DNA of 64,000 nucleotides from Dictyostelium discoideum. Its lineage: Eukaryota. A program made the position numbers and the translations under genes. Below are positions 40,448-61,369 of the stretch, piece after piece; positions within the stretch are counted from its first letter, which is position 1; each line of letters opens with the position of its first letter. The notes under the pieces were generated by a model. It had not been told where the DNA came from. It did no database searches and was given only the letters and a program-made list of their open reading frames with translations. Location: NCBI GenBank assembly GCA_000004695.1, contig CM000155.2, forward strand, positions 96,001 to 160,000, in the 5' to 3' direction.

Positions 40448-41910
40448 TTAAAATGATTCATCATAAGATTTAGTAGTAATTGAAGAGTATTCTTCAGAGG
40501 AAGTTTTAGTTGCAGAAGCGAGATATTCACCAGATCTTGATGGTGATAAGAGGAAAGAAACACCAATGAGAGCGAGAGCATTAGTGGTGACATAGAAAGC
40601 GAGAACTGTTTTTTCACGTACCCATGGTTCGACTGCGGCGGCAATGATACAAATAATTGGAAGGATTAAGAACCAAGCAACAAATGCAATACCAAAGACA
40701 GTGTAAAAGTTACGTTTGGCTGGATGAGTTTCTTCTAAATATGTATTATAACCACACCACATAAACCATAACATTGCTAAACTACGTGCTACCAATAAAA
40801 TAATACCTGGTACTGTATCATACATATAGGTGGTTGCTGCTGGATTTTCACCTGCTTTAATCCAAACAAACATAATGAAATATAATACTGTTAAAACACC
40901 CATAGCACCTAATACAATTCTCTTTTCATCAATTGTAACACGTGAAATTGCCCATCCTTTTGCAATTAAAATTAATAATAAAATAAATAATAATTGTGCT
41001 GCTAAATCTAAAACTATTAAATTTAAAAAAAAAAAAATAAAAAATAAAAAAATAAAATAAAATAAAAAAAAAGATTAATATTACTTCATATATATTTTTT
41101 TTTTTTTTGTGTGTAACTTAAAAATCCAATTTTTTTTTTTATTTTTTTTTTTTTTTTCCGAAAAACGAAAAAAAAAAACAAGAAAATAATTAAGAAAAAA
41201 AAATAAAACTTACGTTCACCAAAACCTTGAGCACCTTTACCACCAGTACCATTATGAGAATAAGAACCATAATTACAAAGGAGTACAAAAACAGAAAGGA
41301 ATTCTAAAACGATGACACCTGAAAGAATTTTGATCATTGGATGGAATGCATTTGCTTTATATAATTTGAATGCTGTAAAGGCAGTGTAACCAGTTAAGAC
41401 TAAAAATACGAAAAAGTAAACCAAATATAATGCTTCGAGACCTTGTTCATCGTAAGAGAATTGGGCTGACCACAAACCACCGCCATTTAAGAGGGTGAGG
41501 GTGAAATCAACTTCACCAACTTCACTATCACAATTTGCTGCAACGACATACCAAAAATGGGCACGTTGGTGATCCTCTGGTAATAAGACTCTTGATGAGT
41601 TGGCTGAAAGTTGATTCATATTGGTTTGTGGAGTACTTGCTGTCACTCTTTCCAAACAACTATATTTACTATTACCACCTACACCCCATTCAGTGGCCCA
41701 ATCGTTGTAAATGTAAATTGATGTACTTGCGTTTGCTGCTGTTCCAACGTATGATAATGAAGCACCTGGTGTTGTACTGTAACAGAATTTTGCTAAAAAT
41801 ACAAAATTATTATTACTATTGATTTTCTCCTTTACAACCATACCATTGCTGACATTGCAAATTAAAAATCCAATTAAAATTGTAAACAAAATACTTGTTT
41901 GTTTTAACAT
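40448..41910 (-). CDS. GPR107/GPR108-type (Lung_7-TM_R / GOST) seven-transmembrane protein, ~420 aa. Exons 41910..41214 and 41013..40448.
   Basis: Signal peptide MLKQTSILFTILIGFLICNVSNG, a luminal Cys-containing domain, then seven hydrophobic helices (...LYLVYFFVFLVLTGYTAF..., ...LILIAKGWAISRV..., ...WFMWCGYNTYLEE..., ...FVAWFLILPIICII...). Intron c|GTAAGT to TTAATAG (phase 1, 200 nt, poly(A)-rich). Confidence 0.75.
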
Positions 41911-42932: not shown

Positions 42933-43991
<1,059 letters not shown>

Positions 43992-44828: not shown

Positions 44829-45084
44829 ATGATTAATATGATTGATAATAATAAAGGCATCAATAAATTAGATGCAGCAATTTATTATTATCTGGTTGAA
44901 AAAGGGATGGCAAAAACAGCTCTATCATTTTCACAAGAAATGAACTTTGATATTGGTGGGCTGAGTCCACTACTCTCAAATTCATCCCATTTATTATCAA
45001 AAGGTTGGGAACAATTAAATTCAATTGGATTTTTCAATAATCAAAATATTCATATGACAAGTAGTCCAATTAGTATTAATAGCA

Positions 45085-45117
<33 letters not shown>

Positions 45118-45154
45118 GCAATGGCAATAATATTCATTTAAATAATAGTCCACC

Positions 45155-45190
<36 letters not shown>

Positions 45191-45605
45191 CAACCCGCCA
45201 AATTTCTTAGGTAACAACAATACAAATAGTAATAATAATAATAACAATAATAATAATAGTAATAATAAAAACAGCTTTTTATTTCAAAATCCAAACCAAA
45301 TAGCAAATCCTTCTTTTTTTTCATCAGCCAATCCCTCAACTAATAATATAATACCGCCAAATCCAAATCCAAATTCTAATAATAATAATACTGGTAATAG
45401 TGGAGGCTTAATTTTAGATAATTCAGCCACAAACTTTTTCCAAAATGTAAATAGTAGTGACAATAATAATAACAACAATAATAATAGTGGTAATAATGTT
45501 AATAACAATAACACGAACCAATCCATTTTTCTCTCATCTCAAAAACAACCGATTCAAACCGAACCAAAAAATAATACTAACAACACCAATAATATTAATC
45601 CAAGC

Positions 45606-45658
<53 letters not shown>

Positions 45659-47261
45659 CAGTAGCAGTAACAATACCAATAATAATAATAATAATAATAA
45701 TATTGATAATTTACAAAGTTCAATTTCATCACAATTACAATTATCATCCCCACCGTCAAGTTCCCCAATTGCAACATCAGCAATGTCCCCAAATAATTTG
45801 GATACAAACCAAATACTCCATACAATAGGGTGCAATATCGAGCATATTCACAATCAATTTTGTAATATGTTGTTTCAAAATCAAACAAATTCATCACCTT
45901 CTTTGTCTACCTCTCATACTTCAATGAACATAACTAACGAGCCAGCAAAAATTTTAGATAAAAAATCACAATTTTCAATTCAATCTCAAAATGATGATAA
46001 TAATACTACTAACAATAATAATAATAATAATATTAGTAATAATAATAATAATAATAATAATAGTAGTAATAGTAGTAATAATAATAATCATGGTAACAAT
46101 CGCAATATTCATAATCATTCACATGGACATAATCAACACAACCATGGCCATGGTCATAATCAACACAACCATGGACATAATCATGGCCATCATAATCATG
46201 GGCATGGACATAATCATGGACATCACAATCATGGCCATCATAATCATGGTCATAATCATAATCATAATCATGGTCATAATCATAATCATGGAAATCACAA
46301 TAATGGCCAAAATACTCCAATTCACAATCATTTTTCTAGTGCACCAATACCAATTGGATCTAATAATAATAATAATAATAAAACAACCACTACAACAACT
46401 ACTACAACAACAACAACGAATAGTTCATCACCAAGTGATGGAATTAATTTCAATTTAAATAGTAATAGTAGTGATGTTGAAAGTTATTTAATAAAATCCA
46501 TTGGTGAAGGAGGTGAAGAGAAATTCACATGTGACTATCAATCATGTGGTAAATCATTTAGTACATTGGCTATATTTAAACGACATTTAAAAGAACATAC
46601 TGGTTGTAAACCATTCGTTTGTACTGAAGAGGGTTGCAATAAAAGATTCTCAAGAAAATTCGACTTAAAGGTACATTTACGTTCTCATACAGGTGAAAAG
46701 CCTTATCTTTGTACATTCCCTGGTTGTAGTAAAAGATTTGCTCGTTCCTCTGATTTACGTCTTCATCAAAGAATTCATACTGGTGAGAAACCTTTTGTAT
46801 GTGATTGGGAAGGTTGTTCAAAAAGATTTATTCGTCAAGCTGATTTAAAAAAACATAGAAAAACACATCAACTTAATAATAATAATAATGCAGCAGCAGC
46901 ATCATCATCATCTTCATCATCTTCGTCACATCCACATGTTCATAGTGTTGGTTGTGGTCATACAGCAATAGCTCATGAAGGTCATATCGATTTTTTACAC
47001 GATCGCCATTTACATTCAATGAATCATGATCATGTTGATCATAGTATTGAAGTATCCGAAACCAATCCTACAAGTTGTACTCCTAAATTCGTTTGTAGTC
47101 ATCATCCTGATGGTTCTTCTCATTCAATGGATTGTGGTCATGAAATTGTTCCACATTTTGACCATTATGATTTCTTGGTCGATGGTCATCTTCATCATGT
47201 ACATGAAGGTCATTGCGATAATCATGGTTGGGTTGAAGTAATAAATAACTTTATGAAATAA
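44829..47261 (+). CDS. Putative transcription factor, 810 aa: N-terminal LisH motif, long poly-N/poly-S linkers, an ~75-aa His-rich (HGHNHGH)n tract, four tandem C2H2 zinc fingers, and a His/Asp-rich C-terminus.
   Basis: LisH: INKLDAAIYYYLVEKGMAKTALSFSQEM. Zinc fingers: CDYQSCGKSFSTLAIFKRHLKEH, CTEEGCNKRFSRKFDLKVHLRSH, CTFPGCSKRFARSSDLRLHQRIH, CDWEGCSKRFIRQADLKKHRKTH with TGEKP linkers. An imperfect CATAATCATGGN repeat encodes (HNHGH)n. Internal or antisense track ORFs (45284-46458) are rejected. Confidence 0.85.
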
Positions 47262-47652: not shown

Positions 47653-49741
47653 ATGTCAAAACTATTAAATATTATTTTTATTTTAATTTTAACAATTTCA
47701 TTTATTAATTGTCAAGAAATTATTAATATTTCAAATGGTCCAATTAGAGGTATAGTTTTTTTTTTTTTTTTTTTTTTTTAAATTATAAAAGTATTAATTA
47801 ACTAATTTATTTTAAATCAATAAAAGGTAATTCATTTGATTCACATAAAGAATTTTTAGGAATTGGTTTCGCACAACCACCAGTCGATCAACTTCGTTGG
47901 AAATCACCATTAGCACCATCACCATGGTCTGATGTTTATGATGCAACCTATGAAAGATTACCTTGTGCACAAATTTGTAATTTACCACCAGAACTTTGCA
48001 CAAATACATCAACAGAAGATTGTTTATATTTAAATGTTTTTACACCAAATATTGATTTCTCAACAATTCAAGAACCATTACCAGTTATGTTTTTCATTGC
48101 TGGAGGAAGGTATATATTTATATTTTTATATTTTTATTTTTAGGTAATTTATATAATAATAATAATAATAATAATATTATTTCAAATCATTTGTTATTAT
48201 AAATTTTTTTTTAATTTATATTTATATATAGATTTGAAATGGGAAGTGGATCAGGAGAGCTTTATAATGGAACTAAAATGGTAAATTCATCAAATATTGT
48301 TTTTGTTAGTATAAATTATAGATTAGGTATTTTTGGTATGCTTCAAACTGATACAATTTCAGGAAATTTAGCATTCGAAGATCAATTATTAGCATTGAAA
48401 TGGGTTCAACAAAATATTAAAGCATTTGGTGGTGATCCTAATCAAGTTACAGTTTTTGGTGAAAGTGCAGGTGGTACAAGTTGCGCACTTCATTTAACAT
48501 CACCAGCTTCTGCTGGTTTATTTTCAAAGATTATCATTGAATCAAATCCATGGTCTTTACCAATCAAAACAATTGATGAAGCTAAAGATTTGGCTAAAAT
48601 TTTCGCCAAAGATTTAGGTTGTGATATTAATGATAATGCTTGTCTTTACTCTAAAAATCAAGAAGAACTTTTACTTGCAATGAATATTAGTCAAAATCAT
48701 TTTAATGTTTTGGCACCACTTTTAACTTTTCTTCCATGGACTCCAGTTGTTGGTAATTATTATAATTAATAATTTTTTTTTTTTAATTCTTATTTTTTAT
48801 AATTATTAATAATTTTTTATTTTGTTATTATTATTATTATTTTAAAGATGGAGTTTTAATTACTGATCAACCATTAGCACTTATTCAAAAAGGTGATTAT
48901 AATAAAGTACCAATTATTGTTGGTACAGTTCGTAATGAAGCATTGGTTTTTGTTGCTGGTGTAAGTATAATCAATAATTATTATATTTAAATAATTTATA
49001 ATATTATTCATAATATATTAATATATTTTTTAAAAAAAGATTGCATTAGATATTAGTAAAATTGAATATATTGGTGGATTAATTGATATATTCGGACTTT
49101 CTCATGAAATAAAGATATATGAATTATATAAACCATTTATCAATGGTTCAAACTTTATGGATACACTTGGAGTAGTTGGTACTGATTATATTTTTGTTTG
49201 TCCAGTTAGAAATGCTGCAATGTATTTATCAACCAATTCAGATTTTCCGGTTTATACTTATCAATTCCAACATGTTTCAAGTTTTAATCCATACGGTAAT
49301 GGTTATGATTATTGTGCTGATCAAGTTTGTCATGGTAATTATTTTATATTGAATATATACATATATATGTTTATATTTATTAATTTTTTAAAATCAATTA
49401 TCACTTTTAATTGTGTTTATATTAATAATAATTTCATTTTATTTTATTTATTTTTTTTTTTTCATTAAGGACTTGAATTACCATATGTTTTTGGTAATGC
49501 TGGACAATATACATTTAGTGCACAAGAACAAATTTTATCAACAAATATGCAAAATTATTGGACAAATTTTGCTGTAAATGGAAATCCAAACATTGGTAAT
49601 CCAGTTAATATCCAATGGACTCAATATAGTAAATCAAGTGATGATATGTTAACTTTAGACACACCAAGTTATATGCAATCAAATTATTTAAAAAATTATT
49701 GTGATTATTGGGATTCTTTGGGTTATCAAGTTGGTTGGTAA
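47653..49741 (+). CDS. Type-B carboxylesterase/lipase-family protein (cholinesterase-like; similar to Dictyostelium D2/crystal-protein esterases), ~526 aa, six exons: 47653..47749, 47827..48109, 48232..48752, 48848..48960, 49040..49334, 49470..49741.
   Basis: Signal peptide MSKLLNIIFILILTISFINCQ; EDCLYLNVFTP; nucleophile elbow FGESAGG; catalytic-triad acid region; C-terminal YVFG. All five introns are GT...AG (GTATAG, GTATAT, GTAATT, GTAAGT, GTAATT donors) with consistent phases. 1581 nt = 527 codons. Confidence 0.88.
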
Positions 49742-49940: not shown

Positions 49941-52900
49941 TTAAAAACCTGGTGGTTTAGCTTCTTTGATTACAGCACCATATTGATTACTAAGAACAAG
50001 AATTGATAATTTAGAAACATTTGAAATATCTAAAGATGAAACTGTTGAATAATCAAAGTAACCAGCAATATCTGTGTAACCATCTTTAAAGAATTCAACT
50101 GAACCATTTTTGTTTTTACTATAAACTTTGATATAGGTCTTTGAGATTGGTTGAGATTTTTGTTTATGAACAACTCTGAGTTGACCAACCTTTTCAGTGA
50201 TATATACGGCAAGATTATTGGAGTAAACGGTAATATTGTGATGAATTTGAGCTGAAACTACATCAATAACAACATTGCTATTGGCAAATTCATTTGGAAT
50301 CTTAAAGTTAAAGGTACCAGATTTATCTTTGAGTAAGAATGATTCCTTCTTATTTGGAGTAACATAAAGGAAGTGACCCAATTCTTGTTGAACGAATGGA
50401 TTGGTTGAGAAAAGATGTTCAATATCCATTACATAGTAACTAACGGTAATATCAACCAAATTACTATAGTTGACAGAGATTGTTCTATTTGATTCAGAGG
50501 AAATATCAAAAGTTGGTTCATTTGAGGCCATTTTATTTTGTCTTCTTTCTCTATCAATTTCTTTTTCATAATCAATTTCAACGGAATCTTTATTGGAAAC
50601 TTGATCAACTTTGTTTCTTAAATCTTTAAATAATGAATTCCAACGTTGAACTGGATAGTTTTCATATTTCTTGCTATTCTCTGCAGCAACTGTTGGATTT
50701 GGATTAAAGAAGTCTAAATAGGATAATAAGTAATCATATTGAACTTTCATTTCTGGTAAACAACTTGGTTGATTAAATTCTGACATATCAATTAATGGTT
50801 CATCGTCATCATCTTCTTCATCATGTTCATCATGATGATGATCATCATGTTCATCGTCACTTGCAATTTTCTCTGGTTTAATTGATTCTTGAGAGGTTGC
50901 AGTGGTAGTAGTAGTGGTAGTAGTAGCTTCGGTTGTTGTTGTTGTTGTTGGAGTAGCTGGATCAACTGATGGAGAAGTTGCTTCAGAACCAGATTTCTTT
51001 TTCAATTTCTTTTCTTCTTCTTTCTTTTTCTTTTCTTCTTTTTCTTTTTTCTTTAATTCTTCTTTTTCTCTCTTTTTATCTTCTTTTTCTTTTTGTTTTC
51101 TTTCTTTTTCTCTTTGTTTTTCTTCTTTTTCAAGTTTCTTTTTATCTTTTGAACTATCAGTAGTGGTTGATAAATTTGAAGAGGAAGAAGAAGAAATTAC
51201 TGATGAATGAGTTGATTTTGAATCAGTAGTGGTTGAAGAAGAAATTAATTTTGGAATTGAAACTGGATGTTTACCAATTCTCTTCATAATTTTAATTGAT
51301 TCATCAAATCTATCTTGAAGTAATAAATAATAAGCTAAAGAAAGTAATTCAGTATCGGATGGATTTAATTTCAATGAAAGTAAACTACAGAATTCATAAT
51401 ATTGATTTGATAATTTATTATTAAGAATCTTTCTTTCATCACCAATTTGATGAGTTCTTGAATTAACCAATGGAGAGTATTCCAAGAATTTGATGAAGTT
51501 ATTTTCAAATGGATCAACATAAATGGATGGTGCATCGATTGATTTCATTGATAAGGAATGAATTTGTTCAGAGAGGTAATCTTTCAAGTAAACGAAATTC
51601 TTATGATGAATAGAGAATGACCAAGTGATAGATTCATAGAATTTCAATTTCTTTAAGAGTTCAATTACTTTATCCCAAACTTTCTTATCGGTATATCTAT
51701 GATAGAGATGATAGAAATCAACACGATACAAATTGTTCTTTGATAAATATTCCAAGATTGATTCCAATGTACCTTGATTTGCAATGTATTCCCATGATAA
51801 ATGATTGACAATAGATGGTTTTAAAACTACACTAAAGGTGAATGGTGTAACATTGGCAATAATATTTTGTTTCTCTGAAACGTGAGCAGGGAAATGTGGG
51901 AATTTACCAGCTTCTGGGAAATAGAAATAATATTGTAAACGAGTGGTACTATATGCAGATAGATTAACAGATTTAGAACGTGTTACAAATGGTGATGGAC
52001 CAACAGCAATTGAACCCTTTGGAATCTCTAAAAGGGCATCCAATTTCTTTTGTTTTGAAGAAAGATTTGCAATTACAACCATTGCACCATAAACCTTTGA
52101 GACAAGGAATTGGTCATTGATATAGAGTTCCTCTTGTTCACCATCTATATAGGTGAATTGATTTTGTGGATCAAAGAAATGTTGAGTTACCAAAATATCA
52201 GATTGTTTTTCAATGCTTCCAGATACCAACTCTTGATGGAAAACAACGATTGGTGTAGTTGGTTTCATTGATAATTTTCCATTCTTTGGTCTAACTTGAG
52301 TGGTATTATCCTTTACAGTGAATGGGAAATCCAATACTGAAAGAGCCATCATTGATTCAGCAAATGATGAACTAATGAATGCAATGTATTTACTAACAAA
52401 TGGTGTTTTGCTTTGGCTCTTGATATGATTTGCATAGTCTAACCAAAATTCATTGACTGGAATCAATGACGAATGTGGATTCAATTGTTTATAATAGTAA
52501 GTTTCTGCTAATTCTTCAGTTTTTTCAATTGGTTGATAGATTTGTGCTGCTTCATAGGCACGAGTAATTGGAGCTGGTGGTGCTGGTGATGCTGATGCCA
52601 ATCTGGCTGATCTCAATGCTGCCATTGGAACTGCTCCAGGTGCTGGACAAGGTGCTGAAGCCATCATCATCATTGGTGCAGCACAATCCATCATTAAACT
52701 TGTTGATTCTTTATTTACCATTTTCTTTTTCATTGGAGCTCTCTTAGCATCACCAAAAGAATTGCTATTAGTAGTATTATTGTTATTGTTGCTATTGTTA
52801 TTGTAGCCGAAACCACCACCACCTCCAACACTCATTGGTTCTAAATTACTACCATCATCATAAAGATCATCATCACCACTCTTTAAACTTTCAATATCAG

Positions 52901-55892
52901 TATCTAATTGATTTAAAGCGATCTTGAAATTTGTATCATATTGAGATGGTGAAATTGGAGAGAAGCCAACTTTTTGTTTCAAAAGATTTGAAATTGAATC
53001 TGAATGTTCTGGGAATAGCTCACCTAATAAAACCATTTCCAAAGCATTTAAAGTGTTGAATCTATTTGAATCGATAACAAATATTTCCAATTTCTTTCTA
53101 TCGGCACATAAATAATGATCAATGAATGTTTTATAACCTTTAGTTTGAACCAATGGTAATACAACTTGATCAAAGAATTCCTTATCCTTTTTATAGATGA
53201 AAAAGTTTAATTCATGGCAAGTGAACTTTGAGAATTTCTCTTTCTTCTTTTCAAATGATAATGATTCCCATTCTGCAATGAAAGAAAAATCTTGAAGATA
53301 ACTCTTATTCAAAGTTTTCATTAAAGATAAAACTTTATCTAAACTATCGTATACTGTATATTTTGAAGAGTTTACATTTAAGATTTCAAATGGTGAATTT
53401 GGTTCAACAGTTGTAATTAATTTCTCTTCTTTATAATGTAAAGATGAATCCAATGGTCTAACTAATTTAGTATCTTTGAAATGATTAATCGATGATGATG
53501 ATGATGGATCAGAAATAACAATCTCTTTTGTAAAGATAGAATCATTATCAACGGCATGGATATGAATTGTTGAACCAGCTTCTACTAATTGAGAGAGATC
53601 AATATTTACTATACCATCAGTTGATGATGGTTCAAGATTTAAAAGTAAAATTGATGGATGTGAAAGAAACTCTAAAAATGGTGAACGATTTGTTGAAGAA
53701 ACTCTTCTCTTTTCAACTTGTCTATTTCTCATTGATTTTTCATCCTTTACTTCAGATTCATTGTATTTACTTGCTTGTTTGAGTGTGTTTGTAGAGTTTG
53801 TAGTTTTACCAATTGACCATGGTTGAACCAATAGACTTGGTTTCTTTAATGAATTACCAGGTAATAGTTTTTTACTAGTTTTTCTATTTAAAATGTAATT
53901 AACTTCATCACCTAATGATCTACCATTGAAATATAATGATTTTGGTTTAACGCTATATTCTTGATAAGATTGAGAAGTACCACGTGATAAAGATAAACTT
54001 GAATTTAAAGAATTTGTTGGTTCAAAGTAACTTGAAAAAACGTGAACTCTAGTTGAAGGGCTATGATTCTTAAATTTAACTTGAAGTTGATTATGTTTAG
54101 TATCAATGTTTGTATCAAAGAATAAAGATTTTACATTTGATTCATTGTATGAAACAATTCTTGATGGACCAACTAAATAACCTTCTCTAAATTGACCATC
54201 GACAACATCAATTAAAATCTCAACTGTATTACTTGATTGAATTGAACCTGCTAAAATCAATAAATATCTACCAACACCTAAACCATTGATAAGTAATTCA
54301 TTTTTATTTTCAATTGTTACAGATTTCTTTAAAAGGTCATGAACAACGAAATTTCTATCATCAACACCACCCAATTGGAAAAAGTTGATTTGTGAATGTG
54401 AAACTGATTTTTCATTACCAAGATATGGTAAACGAATGGTTTCACCCAATTTAATGTTAATTTGAGATGGATAAGTGAATTGTTGTTGTCTTTTAATTGG
54501 GAAATTAAAGGTTGCATAGGAACCATTTACATTTAATTGTTCGATATCAGCCAAAGAACCTAAATGAATTTTACCATTTTTATCGGTTTTCAAAGTGGTA
54601 TAAATTCTTTCAGAGGTTAACCAATGTTGGAAATCCATTGAGACATCCAAATGAGAGAATGGATCACCACCTTTACCAAGATGACAAAGTTGATAACCTA
54701 ATGAACACCCATCTTTAGCTAGACAACGTTCTAAATAGAATTCAGAGATTTGATCAGTTTGATTGATAGTATTAACTTGGAAAGTGGATTCAAATGAAAG
54801 AGTCTCTTGATTATTATTTCTACTAAGAGCACGAACTTTAGCTTCGAAACGAACAGTCAAACTATTTAAACCTTCTTGAACTTTATATTGATATACAGAT
54901 TCTTTATTATCGAATAGAGCAAATGGTTTAATTTCCTTTGAGTTTACAACTGGTGATTCAGAATTATCAGAACTTGTAATGGTGAGAGATGGTTCCTCGA
55001 GATAATTGTTTGAGATTTGAGTATCACCCAAGAACAATTTAACTCTTACAACGATTGGAGCCTTTTCATTTTGAAGTAAACTTGAGTTTTCAACGAAAAT
55101 ACCACCACTTAAAGAGTAATGTTCCGATTGATGAGTGAATTTCTTTAATGAAGCAAATACATCGGAATCACCAATCTTTGCCATTAGAATGATACTCTTT
55201 TGTGAGGTAGATGAAGAGAATGGTATTTTAATATCACCATCATCATTGCTATTGTAGGCATTTCCATCGATGTAAACTGAACTCTTTTGAACTTTGATTG
55301 AATCTTGATCAATGATTTTAATGACTTGACCAATTGGTGAGGTTTCAACAATGAAATGAAGGTCACCCTTTTGAATCATTGATCTACTACTCTTACCATT
55401 ACCAATGAATTCAATTACGAAAATACCTCTCTTTCCTTTAAGATTTGGAAAATCGAATTTCTTTTCAACCTTTTCAATTGGTGCTTGCTCTGAATAATCA
55501 AATGACAACTCTTGACTTGCAATTAAACCATCCAAGTTAATATTTGAATCGATTTTCTTATTTTCACTCTTATAATAATTGAATGTTGAAATTTCAAATA
55601 CTTTTACCAAAAGAGTATTTACATTTTTAATTGCACATTCAATGACTACATCATCATCTGGATGATAATATTCTCTATTGGTTGGTAAGAATTCAATATC
55701 AACACGATCTTTCAACTCTTGTACCTTTGTATGATTATCAATCATTTCAATCCATTTCTCTGGTGAACTATCATTTGATAATAATTTACTCTCTGCTAAT
55801 ATTAAATTTAAATAATTTGGTCTAAAATAACTTTGATATGATTTAATACTATTTTCTTTTAAAAATAATTTTTTTAATAAAAATGAAATCTA

Positions 55893-55932
<40 letters not shown>

Positions 55933-57138
55933 AAGTTAATAATAAAAAAAAGAAATTTAATAATATTATATATATTTAAAAAAAAAACTTACTAATTTTT
56001 CATCATCATCTTGTGATACAGATTTTAAACCATTAAAAGAATCATTAAATTTTGATAATTGTGGATTTGATTTTAATCTATCTGGTTCAACATAATAATA
56101 TGTATCTCTTGGTAATTGAAAATATTTTTCAATTATTGATTGATCATATTTATTATCAGAAATTTGGAATTTAATATAATGATGATAGATTAATAATTTG
56201 AAGGTGTTTAAAGATGTTGGAAGATTTGAAACAAATTTTGAAGCAGATTGATAAAATTGTTCTTGTACTGGTTTAAGAGTTTCCCAATCATGTAATTCAT
56301 TGGTTGGTAATAATTTCTCTAAATAAAGTTTAACATAGGCTGAATCTAAATGCTCTGGATTCTTTTCAATGTGTTTCTCCATTTGTTCCAATGTTAAATT
56401 TTCATGAATTTTCAAAGAACCAAATGAACCCTTATGATGACTTAACAATTGTTGTAATTTATCATTTGGTACAATTGGGTACTTTAATTTTTGTACAATC
56501 GATTTCTCGGCAGATTCTGGTAATGTGAAATTATTTAATACATATTCGAATGAATTTGGTGAAATATAATCAACCTTGTATGGATACTGATTGATAATAC
56601 TTTCAATTACTGTTTTTTTATTTACAAGTGATTCATCTAATGTTGATTCTGATTTATCGTCATGTGATGATGATGATGATGATGAAGGTGTAGTTGTTGT
56701 TTCTGTGGTTGGTGAAGTTTGATGAGTAGTTTGAGTATATGAAAATGTTAAACTAAGGAGGTATCTTAATTCTTCAAACATGTCATTTACATTATTTGCT
56801 AATGCTGATGGATTTACATTATCTTGTCTAAAAGATAATAATTTTTGTCTAAGATCAACTGATTTATATTGTTGAGTGGATTCGTAATTGTTATTTCCTC
56901 CATATGGTGTTACTGGTATTGGTTTTGATTCTGGTGACCAATCTTTCATTAACTTTTGATACTTTTCTCTATTTTTACTGTCGGATAATGTTGGATCAAC
57001 ATTTAATAAATGAATAACATTATAATAGAAATATTGTGGACTACCACCTATCAATGTTCCCAATAATTTCTCTTTCTCTTCAATATCACTTGCTAATACA
57101 TAATTTTCTTCAAATTTTTTATTATTTGAAACTGTCAT
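49941..57138 (-). CDS. Very large uncharacterised protein, ~2364 aa. Two exons: 57138..55993 and 55889..49941.
   Basis: The 416-aa ORF, read from its first ATG at 57138, ends in ...DDDEKL|GTAAGT (phase 0). A TTTTATTAG acceptor opens the 5.9-kb ORF at 55889, in frame (ISFLLKK...KWIEMIDNHTK...). 1146 + 5949 nt, both divisible by 3. Features: beta-rich N-terminal half; Gly/Asn and Ala/Pro/Met-rich low complexity; TPR-like helices; a Lys/Glu coiled-coil low-complexity run (KEKEEKKKKEEEKK); an acidic HDDHHHDEHDEEDDDDE tract; a beta-rich C-terminus. No family recognised. Confidence 0.65.
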
Positions 57139-57391
57139 TTTTTGTTTCCTTTTCCTTTTTTCTTTTTTTCTTTTTTTCTTTTTTTTTTTATATAAATACA
57201 AACAAATAAATTTCAATGATTAGAAAAAAAAAAAAAAATATAATTTAATAAAATTAATTAAGAAAAAGAAAATTAAAAAAGTTTTATAGTGAAAAAAAAA
57301 AAAAAATTTAAAAAAAAAACAGTGTTCTTTCAAACCATGAACAGGCAATAAAATTAAATTTAAATTAAATTTATTTTATTTGAATTATTTT

Positions 57392-58546: not shown

Positions 58547-59708
58547 ATGTTTAATTTATACAGGAGTTCATTAAAAAATCTAAAACTACCAAATATAAAT
58601 AATAATATTAAATCAAATTTGGTAATAAGATCATATACTACCAATATTAATGGTAATATTAAAAATGATGATGATAATAATAAATTTTATTCATTATCAC
58701 AATTTCCATATCCATCAGGAGCATTACATATGGGACATGTGAGAGTTTATACGATATCAGATTGCATTGCAAGATTAAAGAGAATGCAAGGTTATGATGT
58801 AATTCATCCAATGGGATGGGACGCATTTGGATTACCAGCTGAGAATGCAGCAATTGATAAACAAGTTTCACCAAGTGAATGGACAAATTTAAATATAAGT
58901 TCAATGAGAGACCAATTGAAGTTATTGAATTTCCAATTCGATTGGGATAGAGAGCTATCAACATGCAATAAAGAATACTATCGTTGGACACAGGAGATAT
59001 TTCTAAGATTATTGAAATCAGGATTAGCCTACAGAAAGAGTGCTACCGTAAATTGGGATCCAATCGACCAAACTGTGCTTGCCAACGAGCAGGTAGACGC
59101 ACAAGGTAGGTCATGGAGATCAAATGCGATTGTTGAAAAAAAAGAAATGAAGCAATGGTTTTACAAAATCACATCGATGGCAGATAGATTAACTGACGAT
59201 TTAGACCAGTTGCCAGGCTGGTCTGACGAAATTAAAAATATGCAAAAAGAGTGGATTGGCAGATCGTATGGTCACTTAATCGAGTTCCAAAGTTGTGCCC
59301 AAAAACCATTATCAAATATCACAGTGTTCACAACACGTGCCGAAACTATCTATGGTGTTTCATTTTTAGCCATTTCTCCACACCATTCTGAAATCAACCA
59401 AATTAGAGCCAATTTAATAAATGATGAAAAAAGATTAGAATTGGATCAATACTTAAAAGAGATTCAAGAAATTAAAAATAAAATGGGAACACAAGAAGAT
59501 GTTGAAAATTTAAAAACTTTTAATACAGGTTTAACATTTTATCAACCTATAACTAAAAAATACATTCCATTAATACTTTCAAATTTCGTACATGCCGATT
59601 ATGGTACAGGTGCTGTTATGGGTGTACCATCACATAATCGTTCAGATTATCAAGTTGCAAAACAACAAAATTTAAAATTATTACCAGTTTTAGGTATTGA
59701 AAGAGAGC

Positions 59709-59746
<38 letters not shown>

Positions 59747-61369
59747 CTAGAAATAGAAGAGGAATGTTATGATTATTCAAATACTGGTAAATTAATTAAT
59801 AGTGGACAAGATACAGGTATTGAATTTAAAGAATTTATTAAAAGATTAGAAGATCAACAATTAATAAAGAGACAAACAAATTATAGAATTCATGATTGGT
59901 TAATTTCAAGACAACGTTATTGGGGTACACCAATTCCAATTATTGTTTGTGAGAAATGTGGTGATGTACCAGTACCATCGGATCAATTACCAGTTGAATT
60001 ACCAATCGATATTCAATTCACTGGTAAAGGTAATTTATTGAATCAATTAGATCATTGGAAGAATGTTAAATGTCCATGTTGTGGATCACAAGCAACTAGA
60101 GAAACTGATACAATGGATACATTTGTTGATTCATCTTGGTATTTCCTCAGATTTTTAGATAGTAAAAACTCACAATCCATTTTCTCTTCGGAATTGGTCA
60201 ACAGATTCATGCCAATCGATGTTTATGTCGGTGGTATCGAACATGCTATCCTTCATTTACTATACAGTCGTTTCATTACAAAATTCTTAAAAGATCAACA
60301 ATTAATTGACCATTCTGAACCATTCAAAGTTTTATTAGCACAAGGTTTAGTTAAATCACCAACTTATCGTGATTCGATAACAAATAAACCAATTCATCCA
60401 TCAAATGTTGAATTTAAAACTATTAAATCAAATGAAAGCGGTAAATCTCAACAACAAACTATAAATAAATTAACGGGTAATCAAGTTTCCGTTACAATTG
60501 AAAAAATGTCAAAATCAAAATTAAATGGTATTGATCCAAAAGAAATCATTGATAAATATGGTTCTGATACTTTGAAAACTTATATTCTATTTAAAGCACC
60601 ACCAGAGAAATCATTAGATTGGGATACTCAAGGTATTGAAGGTTGTAAGAAATGGTTAACAAGAATCAATGTTTCAATTCAATCATTTTTAAATCAATTT
60701 GATGTAATTGAAGGTAAAGAGCAACACCAACATCAACAACAACAACATCAACAACCATTACCTTCATCAGAATTTAATGAACAACAATCTAAAGAAGTTA
60801 AAGATATTCTATTTGAAACTCATTTAACTATGAATAAAGTTACAGAATCAATTGATAAACATTCTTTTAATACTGGTATCGCTGCATTAATGGAACTTTC
60901 AAATACATTACAAAAATCATCTCCACAAATTAAATTAACCAAAGAATATTATCAATCATTGAGAGCATTGACTTTAATGTTATTCCCATTCTCTCCAATA
61001 TTTTCACAAATTCATTGGAAATCATTAATTGATGATTTACCACAATCTTGTAAATCATTTTATTCTGAAAACTATTCATCATTTGAGCAACAATCATATG
61101 GTAATTCAAATGATAATGATGTCTTTAATCAACGTTGGCCAAAACCAACTCCATCCGCTTTAGTTAGAGATTTCAATAGTTTGGTCATTCAATTCGATGG
61201 TAAAACTAAAGGTGTTGAATCAATTCCAACTTCAATCACTGATTTCTCAAATTTTGTTCAATCAAATTCAAAATATTTAAATAGATTCAAAGATAAAACT
61301 ATTGATCAAATTTTCATTGGTACAACAAAAACTGGAAATTCTATTAATTTCACTTTTAAAAAAAAATAA
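58547..61369 (+). CDS. Leucyl-tRNA synthetase, bacterial/mitochondrial type, 940 aa, single exon.
   Basis: Class I aaRS signatures: PYPSGALHMGHVRVYTISD (HIGH-type HMGH) and KMSKSKLNG (KMSKS). LeuRS-specific blocks: WDAFGLPAENAA, GRSWRS, DWLISRQRYWGTPIPI. The N-terminus (MFNLYRSSLKNLKLP...RSYTT) looks like a mitochondrial presequence. Poly-Q insertions come from (CAA)n. Confidence 0.93.

Follow-up and report, generated by a model that had tools for sequence, protein, structure and literature searches.

The 64,000-nucleotide (nt) stretch of Dictyostelium discoideum DNA analysed here (hereafter the window) carries the gene abpF on its minus strand, at 49941..57138. We conclude with high confidence that this locus is one gene of two exons and a single intron, and that it encodes AbpF, a 2364-residue protein of ~270 kDa and the sole Dictyostelium member of the CAGE family. 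The gene model, the structure of the protein and its family are already known, from the reference annotation and from descriptions of 2025–26. An earlier sequence-only reading of the locus, which reconstructed the protein from two open reading frames (ORFs), had regarded it as uncharacterised; it is instead the product of a named gene, a CAGE subunit with a reported native structure from electron cryomicroscopy (cryo-EM).

Three observations go beyond the passages of the CAGE preprint (McCafferty et al., bioRxiv 10.1101/2025.09.22.677704 / PMC12485934) on which we draw: the lack of a conserved operon partner at 86 bacterial loci, the lack of a thioester or nucleotide-binding motif, and a low-complexity insertion specific to one lineage. 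Together these point to a self-contained, ATP-independent container or trap.

Gene model and identity of abpF

The window is very AT-rich (about 14–33% GC in 2-kb bins), and two minus-strand ORFs cover the locus, at 55966..57216 and 49941..55745. Exon 1 (55993..57138, codons 1–382) begins with an ATG at 57138, and its frame stays open up to a GTAAGT donor at 55992, where its 3' end reads ...GAT GAT GAT GAA AAA TTA. The single intron is in phase 0 and spans 103 nt (55890..55992, GTAAGT...TTTTATTAG), closing with a T-rich tract and TTTTATTAG at 55890. Exon 2 (49941..55889) then opens in frame with ATT TCA TTT TTA and holds codons 383–2364 and the stop at 49943–49941; the 1934-aa ORF at 49941..55745 is the portion of this exon downstream of an internal Met.

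Joined on the minus strand, 57138–55993 and 55889–49941 contribute 1146 + 5949 nt, each divisible by 3, and give a reading frame of 2364 codons in which the terminal stop is the sole stop. The intron has a GC content of 5.8%, against 27–30% in the abpF exons, and holds stops in all three frames; unspliced read-through out of exon 1 terminates 9 codons into it. Removal of the 103 nt yields XP_635154.1 exactly, and the spliced product is residue-for-residue that of DDB_G0291229 and UniProt Q54ET6 (D. discoideum AX4). The sequence-only reading, which had proposed one gene with an intron at 55992–55890, therefore equals the RefSeq model: minus-strand reading and spliced translation showed its GTAAGT donor, acceptor, coordinates and 2364-aa length to be correct, and the frame runs through its proposed junction uninterrupted by any stop.

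Comparison with relatives gives the same structure. In a MAFFT alignment, intronless bacterial homologues are colinear with AbpF and gap-free over the junction (DDDEKL/ISFLLKKLF, the slash marking the splice site, vs NDEPLVRAYLSHFF, IDEPLVRSYLKQFL and similar). At the identical codon boundary, DDDEKL/ISFLLKKL, the D. purpureum orthologue (locus L087) is interrupted by a phase-0 intron of 87 nt, GTAAGT...TTTAG. Each homologue found covers both abpF exons as a single chain of about 2100–2500 aa, and exon 1 residues 8–40 (FEENYVLASD...GSPQYFYYN) align to the mature N-terminus of the bacterial homologues.

Intron content varies among dictyostelids. The D. purpureum orthologue has one additional intron, at residue 192/193 (its introns lie at 2077–2162 and 2694–2780 of L087). 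In Acytostelium subglobosum (L088) several introns lie at other places, tblastn is broken off at about four sites apart from these dictyostelid positions, and the annotated gene span equals the coding sequence plus about 276 nt.

The alternative of two separate genes, or of one pseudogene broken by a stop codon, with the proposed splice a coincidence, is effectively excluded. A prokaryote-style gene caller does list the two ORFs separately, and two products in the Logan assemblies, P0004 (1936 aa) and P0043 (390 aa), match the separate ORFs; these are the abpF ORFs called without splicing, the output of intron-blind gene calling, and so the locus can look like two genes. Against this stand the identity of the spliced product with the RefSeq and UniProt protein, bacterial and dictyostelid homologues that all run as one chain over both parts and without a gap at the junction, the same-site intron in D. 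purpureum, and the canonical signals and low GC content of the intron itself.

The CAGE family and the architecture of AbpF

AbpF ("Actin-binding protein F") is named in the CAGE preprint, whose latest version is dated 2026-04-03 and whose passages on discovery and structure are summarised here (bioRxiv 10.1101/2025.09.22.677704). CAGE was first met in Tetrahymena, where a hollow elliptical particle of the ciliary matrix was identified as four copies of I7MLD7 (CAGE1). Dictyostelium has a single CAGE gene; its product, the orthologue "aka AbpF", was purified in native form for cryo-EM and resolved at 3.58 Å, and at 3.3 Å in a later version. It forms a four-copy D2 homotetramer of about 1 MDa, measuring 22 × 16 × 12 nm, around a cavity of about 600 nm3 to which slit-like openings give access, S-shaped at the sides and Z-shaped at the top. 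Coordinates are given as PDB 11KS and 11KT, the Dictyostelium particle being PDB 11KT / EMD-75780. The BLASTP query of Table S2 in the preprint is XP_635154.1 (2364 aa), which ties the protein of the window to CAGE at accession level.

Sequence databases placed AbpF in no recognisable family, just as the sequence-only reading had reported. Pfam returned a single sub-threshold match, CAF1A_acidic on the Lys/Glu-rich (K/E-rich) tract (22.6 bits vs a cut-off of 26.4); a PDB sequence search, with an entry set that lacked 11KS and 11KT, gave compositional noise only; and no NCBIfam model matched the bacterial CAGE homologues. Matches to CAF1A_acidic, TolA and LpqN were rejected as below threshold and compositional, originating in the K/E-rich and Thr-rich insert. 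The preprint, in the passages used here, likewise gives CAGE no Pfam or SCOP domains (bioRxiv 10.1101/2025.09.22.677704).

Homology searches recovered dictyostelid orthologues from D. citrinum (90% identity), D. dimigraforme, D. firmibasis, D. purpureum, Polysphondylium violaceum, Acytostelium subglobosum and Cavenderia fasciculata. They also recovered full-length homologues of about 2100 aa from metagenome-assembled genomes of Planctomycetota and Verrucomicrobiota (26–31% identity, E 0 to 1e-200), and these bacterial relatives align to AbpF end to end. An exhaustive search with a profile of the N-terminal half reached 4702 cluster-50 representatives at E ≤ 1e-3, of which 1761 remained at E ≤ 1e-30. 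A profile built from a 20-sequence full-length alignment found the same 41 proteins as the single-sequence search, with one swapped, probably since low-complexity words took up its 8000 candidates, and a search with the clean C-terminal 274 residues of AbpF, restricted by its word index, gave 1 match among 360 candidates.

Relatives retrieved with the C-terminal motifs FxKDGYTD[LIP] and Y[YF]xMDxE[FLH][LS]F occur in at least 553 GTDB species genomes. The carriers among the matches listed include Pirellulaceae, Gemmataceae, Phycisphaerae, an anammox planctomycete, Opitutia, Kiritimatiellia, Lentisphaerae, Akkermansiaceae, Desulfobacterota, Myxococcota, Elusimicrobia and Ozemobacter, together with one cultured carrier, Chthoniobacter flavus Ellin428. 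These counts and taxa agree with the preprint, which reports 3,521 CAGE homologues, more than two-thirds of them bacterial (Planctomycetota, Verrucomicrobiota and Thermodesulfobacteriota), and from whose Table S2 we took the non-dictyostelid eukaryotic homologues (bioRxiv 10.1101/2025.09.22.677704). Its passages on eukaryotes name ciliates, other lineages of the SAR group (stramenopiles, alveolates and Rhizaria), green algae, kinetoplastids, choanoflagellates, and mucoromycete and chytrid fungi, and state that homologues are lacking in animals and flowering plants.

Two sequences in the collection deserve separate mention. At the N-terminus of Cavenderia fasciculata DFA_06970 (P0009) stand about 200 extra residues, unique within the family; its upstream exon or start is probably mis-annotated, since an internal MSNNFKFEELY... 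corresponds to the usual family start. P0040, a 2282-aa Logan product that has no signal peptide and is 28% identical to AbpF, probably comes from an unidentified eukaryote.

For the domain architecture, AlphaFold2 (AF2) was run on each half of AbpF separately, from 15-sequence sub-alignments; the N-half model (residues 3–1200) reached a predicted local distance difference test score (pLDDT) of 77.5 and a predicted template modelling (TM) score (pTM) of 0.71. On the minus strand, the predicted protein opens with an all-alpha N-terminal region that spans the intron (residues 1–443, 55707..57138; pLDDT 80–93 over most of it) and contains a disordered Ser/Thr-rich loop at about residues 125–160. 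It continues with an array of beta-sandwiches of macroglobulin (MG)- or Ig-like type, supported by AF2 and Foldseek (residues 444–1230, 53346..55706) and broken at about residues 1049–1114 by a disordered loop, and with a helical domain (residues 1232–1385, 52881..53342) that bears the motif (A/T)CHELNFF.Y.KD..FF. A variable disordered linker rich in Gly, Asn, Pro, Ala and Met (residues about 1386–1500, 52536..52880) leads to short helices followed by a further predicted beta-sandwich domain (residues about 1501–1737, 51825..52535), with an invariant FYFP at 1704–1707, and then to a helical region (residues 1745–1919, 51279..51803). Next come a low-complexity insertion that the family alignment marks as dictyostelid-specific (residues about 1924–2090, 50766..51266) and a C-terminal helical segment with beta domains (residues 2091–2364, 49944..50765; alpha 2094–2169, beta 2175–2359).

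The domain sketch of the sequence-only reading holds in part: its K/E and His/Asp tracts are present, but the N-terminal third that it took to be beta-rich starts with the 443 residues that AF2 models as all-alpha. The most conserved motifs of the family, YYxMDxExLFSxNPF and FxKDGYTDxxGxFDY, lie in the C-terminal segment. In the helical-domain motif, a set of 20 sequences shows no variation at H1274, E1275, K1283 and D1284, and P0021 and P0034 have Ser in place of the Cys of CHEL; this Cys is thus not obligatory, and the CHEL motif is not a thioester.

AF2 and the alignment agree on two positionally conserved disordered loops, at about residues 1049–1114 and 1378–1520, the latter with pLDDT <50 throughout in the C-half model. 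The family alignment keeps the position of both segments and not their sequence: about 47–51 residues follow LLxxPW, and about 100–140 precede T.E.AE..YY. The bacterial linker of about 100–140 residues aligns with the linker position in AbpF and is unrelated to it in sequence.

The dictyostelid insertion consists of a Ser/Thr run, a K/E-rich segment (about residues 1962–2015), a Thr run and an acidic His/Asp tract (about 2060–2079). One long K/E helix is predicted at 1966–2014; elsewhere in the insertion pLDDT falls below 50. The spurious CAF1A_acidic and TolA matches stem from the insertion alone. Bacterial homologues contribute no residues to the family alignment between Dictyostelium residues 1925 and 2090, so the K/E and His/Asp tracts belong to a loop insertion confined to dictyostelids and lying outside the conserved fold.

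Bacterial homologues appear, from their N-terminal sequences, to carry cleavable signal peptides that the dictyostelid proteins lack. Hydrophobic leaders, mostly of 21–37 residues and with a maximum Kyte–Doolittle 10-mer mostly of 2.2–3.4, stand in the bacterial proteins immediately N-terminal to (E)IGF.E.FALA.DR...L..LIPGT.DYYYY, and the dictyostelid proteins have only 4–8 residues ahead of the conserved N-terminal motif (F.E.FAL). No lipobox cysteine is evident in the bacterial leaders. The pattern agrees with the DeepTMHMM result of the preprint, which limits signal peptides to bacterial members (bioRxiv 10.1101/2025.09.22.677704).

At the bacterial loci examined the CAGE gene stands alone, with no conserved partner, cargo or maturation gene. 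Six loci with flanks of 8–10 kb have unrelated neighbours and typically an upstream spacer of more than 130 nt, and when flanking ORFs were clustered across 86 loci, for which the upstream flank of L007–L086 extends only about 2.6 kb past the gene start, no family recurred in more than about 10%. The most recurrent neighbours were DUF1501-like (9/86) and PSCyt2/PSD1-like (8/86) proteins, families that are massively paralogous in bacteria of the Planctomycetes–Verrucomicrobia–Chlamydiae (PVC) group. A Peptidase_S9 gene adjoins the CAGE homologue in two of the first six loci (L003:16599–18602 and L006:5324–7426); the adjacency is probably due to chance, given that the S9 cluster of L006 occurs in only 2 loci of the 86-locus set.

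Origin of the gene and its surroundings in the window

Horizontal acquisition of the dictyostelid gene from PVC-type prey bacteria, in place of inheritance from a eukaryotic ancestor, is improbable. Similarity ranking favours such a transfer: after Dictyostelia, in our search and in Table S2 alike, hundreds of bacterial proteins (29–31%) rank above the first other eukaryote, Mortierella (29%), which is placed far lower, and Tetrahymena stands at 25%. These differences of 1–5% in identity fall, however, within rate variation, and the gene has spliceosomal introns and a host-like composition. A crude neighbour-joining tree of 7 signal-less and 45 bacterial sequences puts the dictyostelids and P0040 outside all sampled bacteria, not nested within any bacterial subgroup; this placement is not rigorous and lends no support to a recent bacterial origin. 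The presence of the family in many eukaryotic supergroups, as described in the preprint's passages on distribution (bioRxiv 10.1101/2025.09.22.677704), likewise argues against transfer.

Around abpF, the window holds several other coding regions. A 940-aa intronless leucyl-tRNA synthetase ORF (58547–61369, plus strand), with class I catalytic, editing and anticodon-binding domains, is divergent from abpF, the two start codons being separated by a very AT-rich spacer of about 1.4 kb. Two plus-strand ORFs at 48239–48769 and 49157–49468 match successive stretches of the carboxylesterase (COesterase) profile, positions 116–287 and 385–436, and are probably exons of one multi-exon gene, convergent with abpF and separated from its 3' end by about 470 nt. 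Farther away lie an 810-aa C2H2 zinc-finger ORF (44829–47261, plus strand) amid long poly-Asn tracts and an unusual block of His-Gly-His-Asn repeats (HGHNHGHH...), and two minus-strand ORFs at 41086–41910 and 43014–43991, one GPR180/TMEM145-like and the other a class I S-adenosylmethionine (SAM) methyltransferase. The methyltransferase ORF runs on through a low-complexity tract that translates as a long poly-Leu stretch, and its true 3' end is probably spliced or earlier. A tRNA scan of the 64,000-nt window found none.

Function and comparison with known systems

Passive, ATP-independent enclosure or sequestration, taken as a class, is the conserved CAGE activity that we tentatively propose, as a reading that is plausible and short of probable. 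Its basis is that most members would be exported to an ATP-free compartment and that nothing enzymatic is conserved. Scans for thioester (CGEQ), HExxH and Walker A motifs found none family-wide; specifically, C[GA]EQ is absent from 191 family sequences and Walker A from the AbpF sequence. The conserved features would then be architectural, with no catalytic, nucleotide-binding or thioester signature, and the cavity may enclose or sequester macromolecules passively, as a trap, a holdase or a container. Catalysis or ATP-driven folding is unlikely as the CAGE activity.

Several points weigh against the proposal of passive enclosure. The MG-domain resemblance is one of fold level only, and fibronectin-type FN3 arrays, pilins and glycosidase accessory domains are also among the fold matches. 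Beta-sandwich arrays are common in unrelated proteins. The C-half AF2 model (residues 1201–2364) is of modest quality (pLDDT 65, pTM 0.36), and our signal-peptide call is a hydropathy heuristic, not the output of a trained predictor such as SignalP. The structural source for CAGE is a preprint, whose passages on function describe CAGE as without a known one, report no cargo density in the cavity, and offer chaperone, container or transport, and protease trap as the authors' speculation (bioRxiv 10.1101/2025.09.22.677704).

The sequence-only reading had rightly called the protein a good target for structure-based annotation. A Foldseek search of the N-half model against the PDB revealed an MG-like fold resemblance. 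There were 97 matches at E ≤ 1e-3, and the best 35 of the 97 fall almost exclusively in the alpha-2-macroglobulin (A2M)/complement superfamily; the top matches are complement C5b, C3 and C4b, CD109, A2ML1, tetramer states of human A2M, mosquito TEP1, E. coli ECAM and Salmonella A2M. Matches of this type have E-values of 1e-9 to 1e-7 over 650–980 aligned columns, with about 10% identity and a global TM score of 0.1–0.19, and no C3d-like or thioester-domain match is among the top matches listed. The preprint's passages on the fold also name A2M, as the best match for two of the Ig-like beta-sandwiches of CAGE (bioRxiv 10.1101/2025.09.22.677704).

Given this resemblance, AbpF and CAGE could be a true, highly diverged member of the A2M/thioester-protein group, a bait-and-trap protease inhibitor whose tetramer would close around a protease once that had cut an exposed loop; we consider this unlikely. 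There is no A2M Pfam domain, the CGEQ motif is missing from all 191 members, the top matches listed lack a thioester domain, both the helical domains and the domain order differ, and the global TM score is low. Bacterial A2Ms are lipoproteins, and the bacterial CAGE leaders have no lipobox Cys; nor is there a PBP1c-type or other conserved neighbour at the bacterial loci examined, and the eukaryotic protein is cytosolic. A variant in which CAGE is a thioester-less, ATP-independent relative of the A2M trap, with loops 1049–1114 and 1378–1520 as bait or cavity-lining capture elements, is quite unlikely as well. Such a relative, an exported protein in bacteria and a cytosolic one in protists, would sequester proteases or further proteins; if real, it would supply a family of thousands of orphan 2000-aa proteins with a function. 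The similarity of fold speaks for this variant; the lack of a thioester, the differing architecture and the lack of cargo density speak against it.

A chaperone-like folding chamber, or a holdase for proteins or RNA, is a doubtful reading, if a better one than the A2M trap. The particle is a symmetric hollow homo-oligomer of bacteria and eukaryotes alike; in a 2026 proteome study AbpF ranks in the top 50 by abundance within the part of the proteome that stays stable through development, in line with high constitutive abundance; and AbpF appears, weakly enriched, in a pull-down list of UBXD9, a p97 cofactor, which is weak evidence. The preprint raises the possibility in its passages on function (bioRxiv 10.1101/2025.09.22.677704), and the same source describes a cavity that is undivided, much larger than that of GroEL and without cargo density. 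No ATPase motif and no conserved co-chaperone-like neighbour (86 bacterial loci) were found.

A mainly cytoskeletal role for AbpF, as an actin-binding, centrosome-associated structural protein, is very improbable. The name, which has its basis in biochemical co-purification, goes back to a 1993 thesis on a purified 270-kDa actin-binding, centrosome-localised protein, cited in the preprint, which in its Tetrahymena passages also reports an actin cross-link for CAGE (bioRxiv 10.1101/2025.09.22.677704), and a centrosome review lists AbpF among centrosome-associated proteins. The same review, however, gives no orthologue in any other model organism; the Pfam search found no known actin-binding domain (CH, gelsolin, ADF-H, WH2, I/LWEQ and similar); and abundant megadalton particles often co-purify with the cytoskeleton. 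Most family members, moreover, are exported bacterial proteins of organisms without actin, which makes an actin or centrosome role less likely as the core function. Actin binding by AbpF is probably a partner interaction, and passive enclosure remains the activity we put forward.

Among known systems, AbpF is itself the Dictyostelium type member of the CAGE family, which also includes Tetrahymena CAGE1–3 and with which it shares the length class, the alpha / beta-array / alpha / beta layout and the lack of Pfam domains. Its helical N-terminus, Ig/MG-like cluster and interleaved helical and beta regions match the preprint's description of CAGE1 (bioRxiv 10.1101/2025.09.22.677704). AbpF is about 25% identical to Tetrahymena CAGE1; relative to CAGE1 and the bacterial members, dictyostelid proteins have the additional low-complexity insertion of ~165 residues. 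With the A2M/complement superfamily, including E. coli YfhM/ECAM, AbpF shares an MG-like beta-sandwich array and a tetrameric cage form. It differs in having no sequence-level match to the family models (Pfam, and NCBIfam for the bacterial members), no thioester motif, large helical domains without a counterpart in A2M and an overall arrangement unlike that of A2M, as well as bacterial relatives whose leaders have no lipobox. By sequence and by thioester, AbpF falls outside that superfamily.

Vaults, GroEL/GroES, encapsulins and carboxysome shells are, like CAGE, megadalton, symmetric, hollow and abundant, and the vault shares with CAGE the lack of an established function. CAGE is unrelated to these assemblies in fold and stoichiometry, using four very long chains where they use many small ones, and has no ATPase and no known cargo-loading peptide or partner genes. 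It is among the few megadalton protein cages common to bacteria and eukaryotes, and Dictyostelium, genetically tractable and with a single CAGE copy, is the obvious organism in which to test the container or trap.

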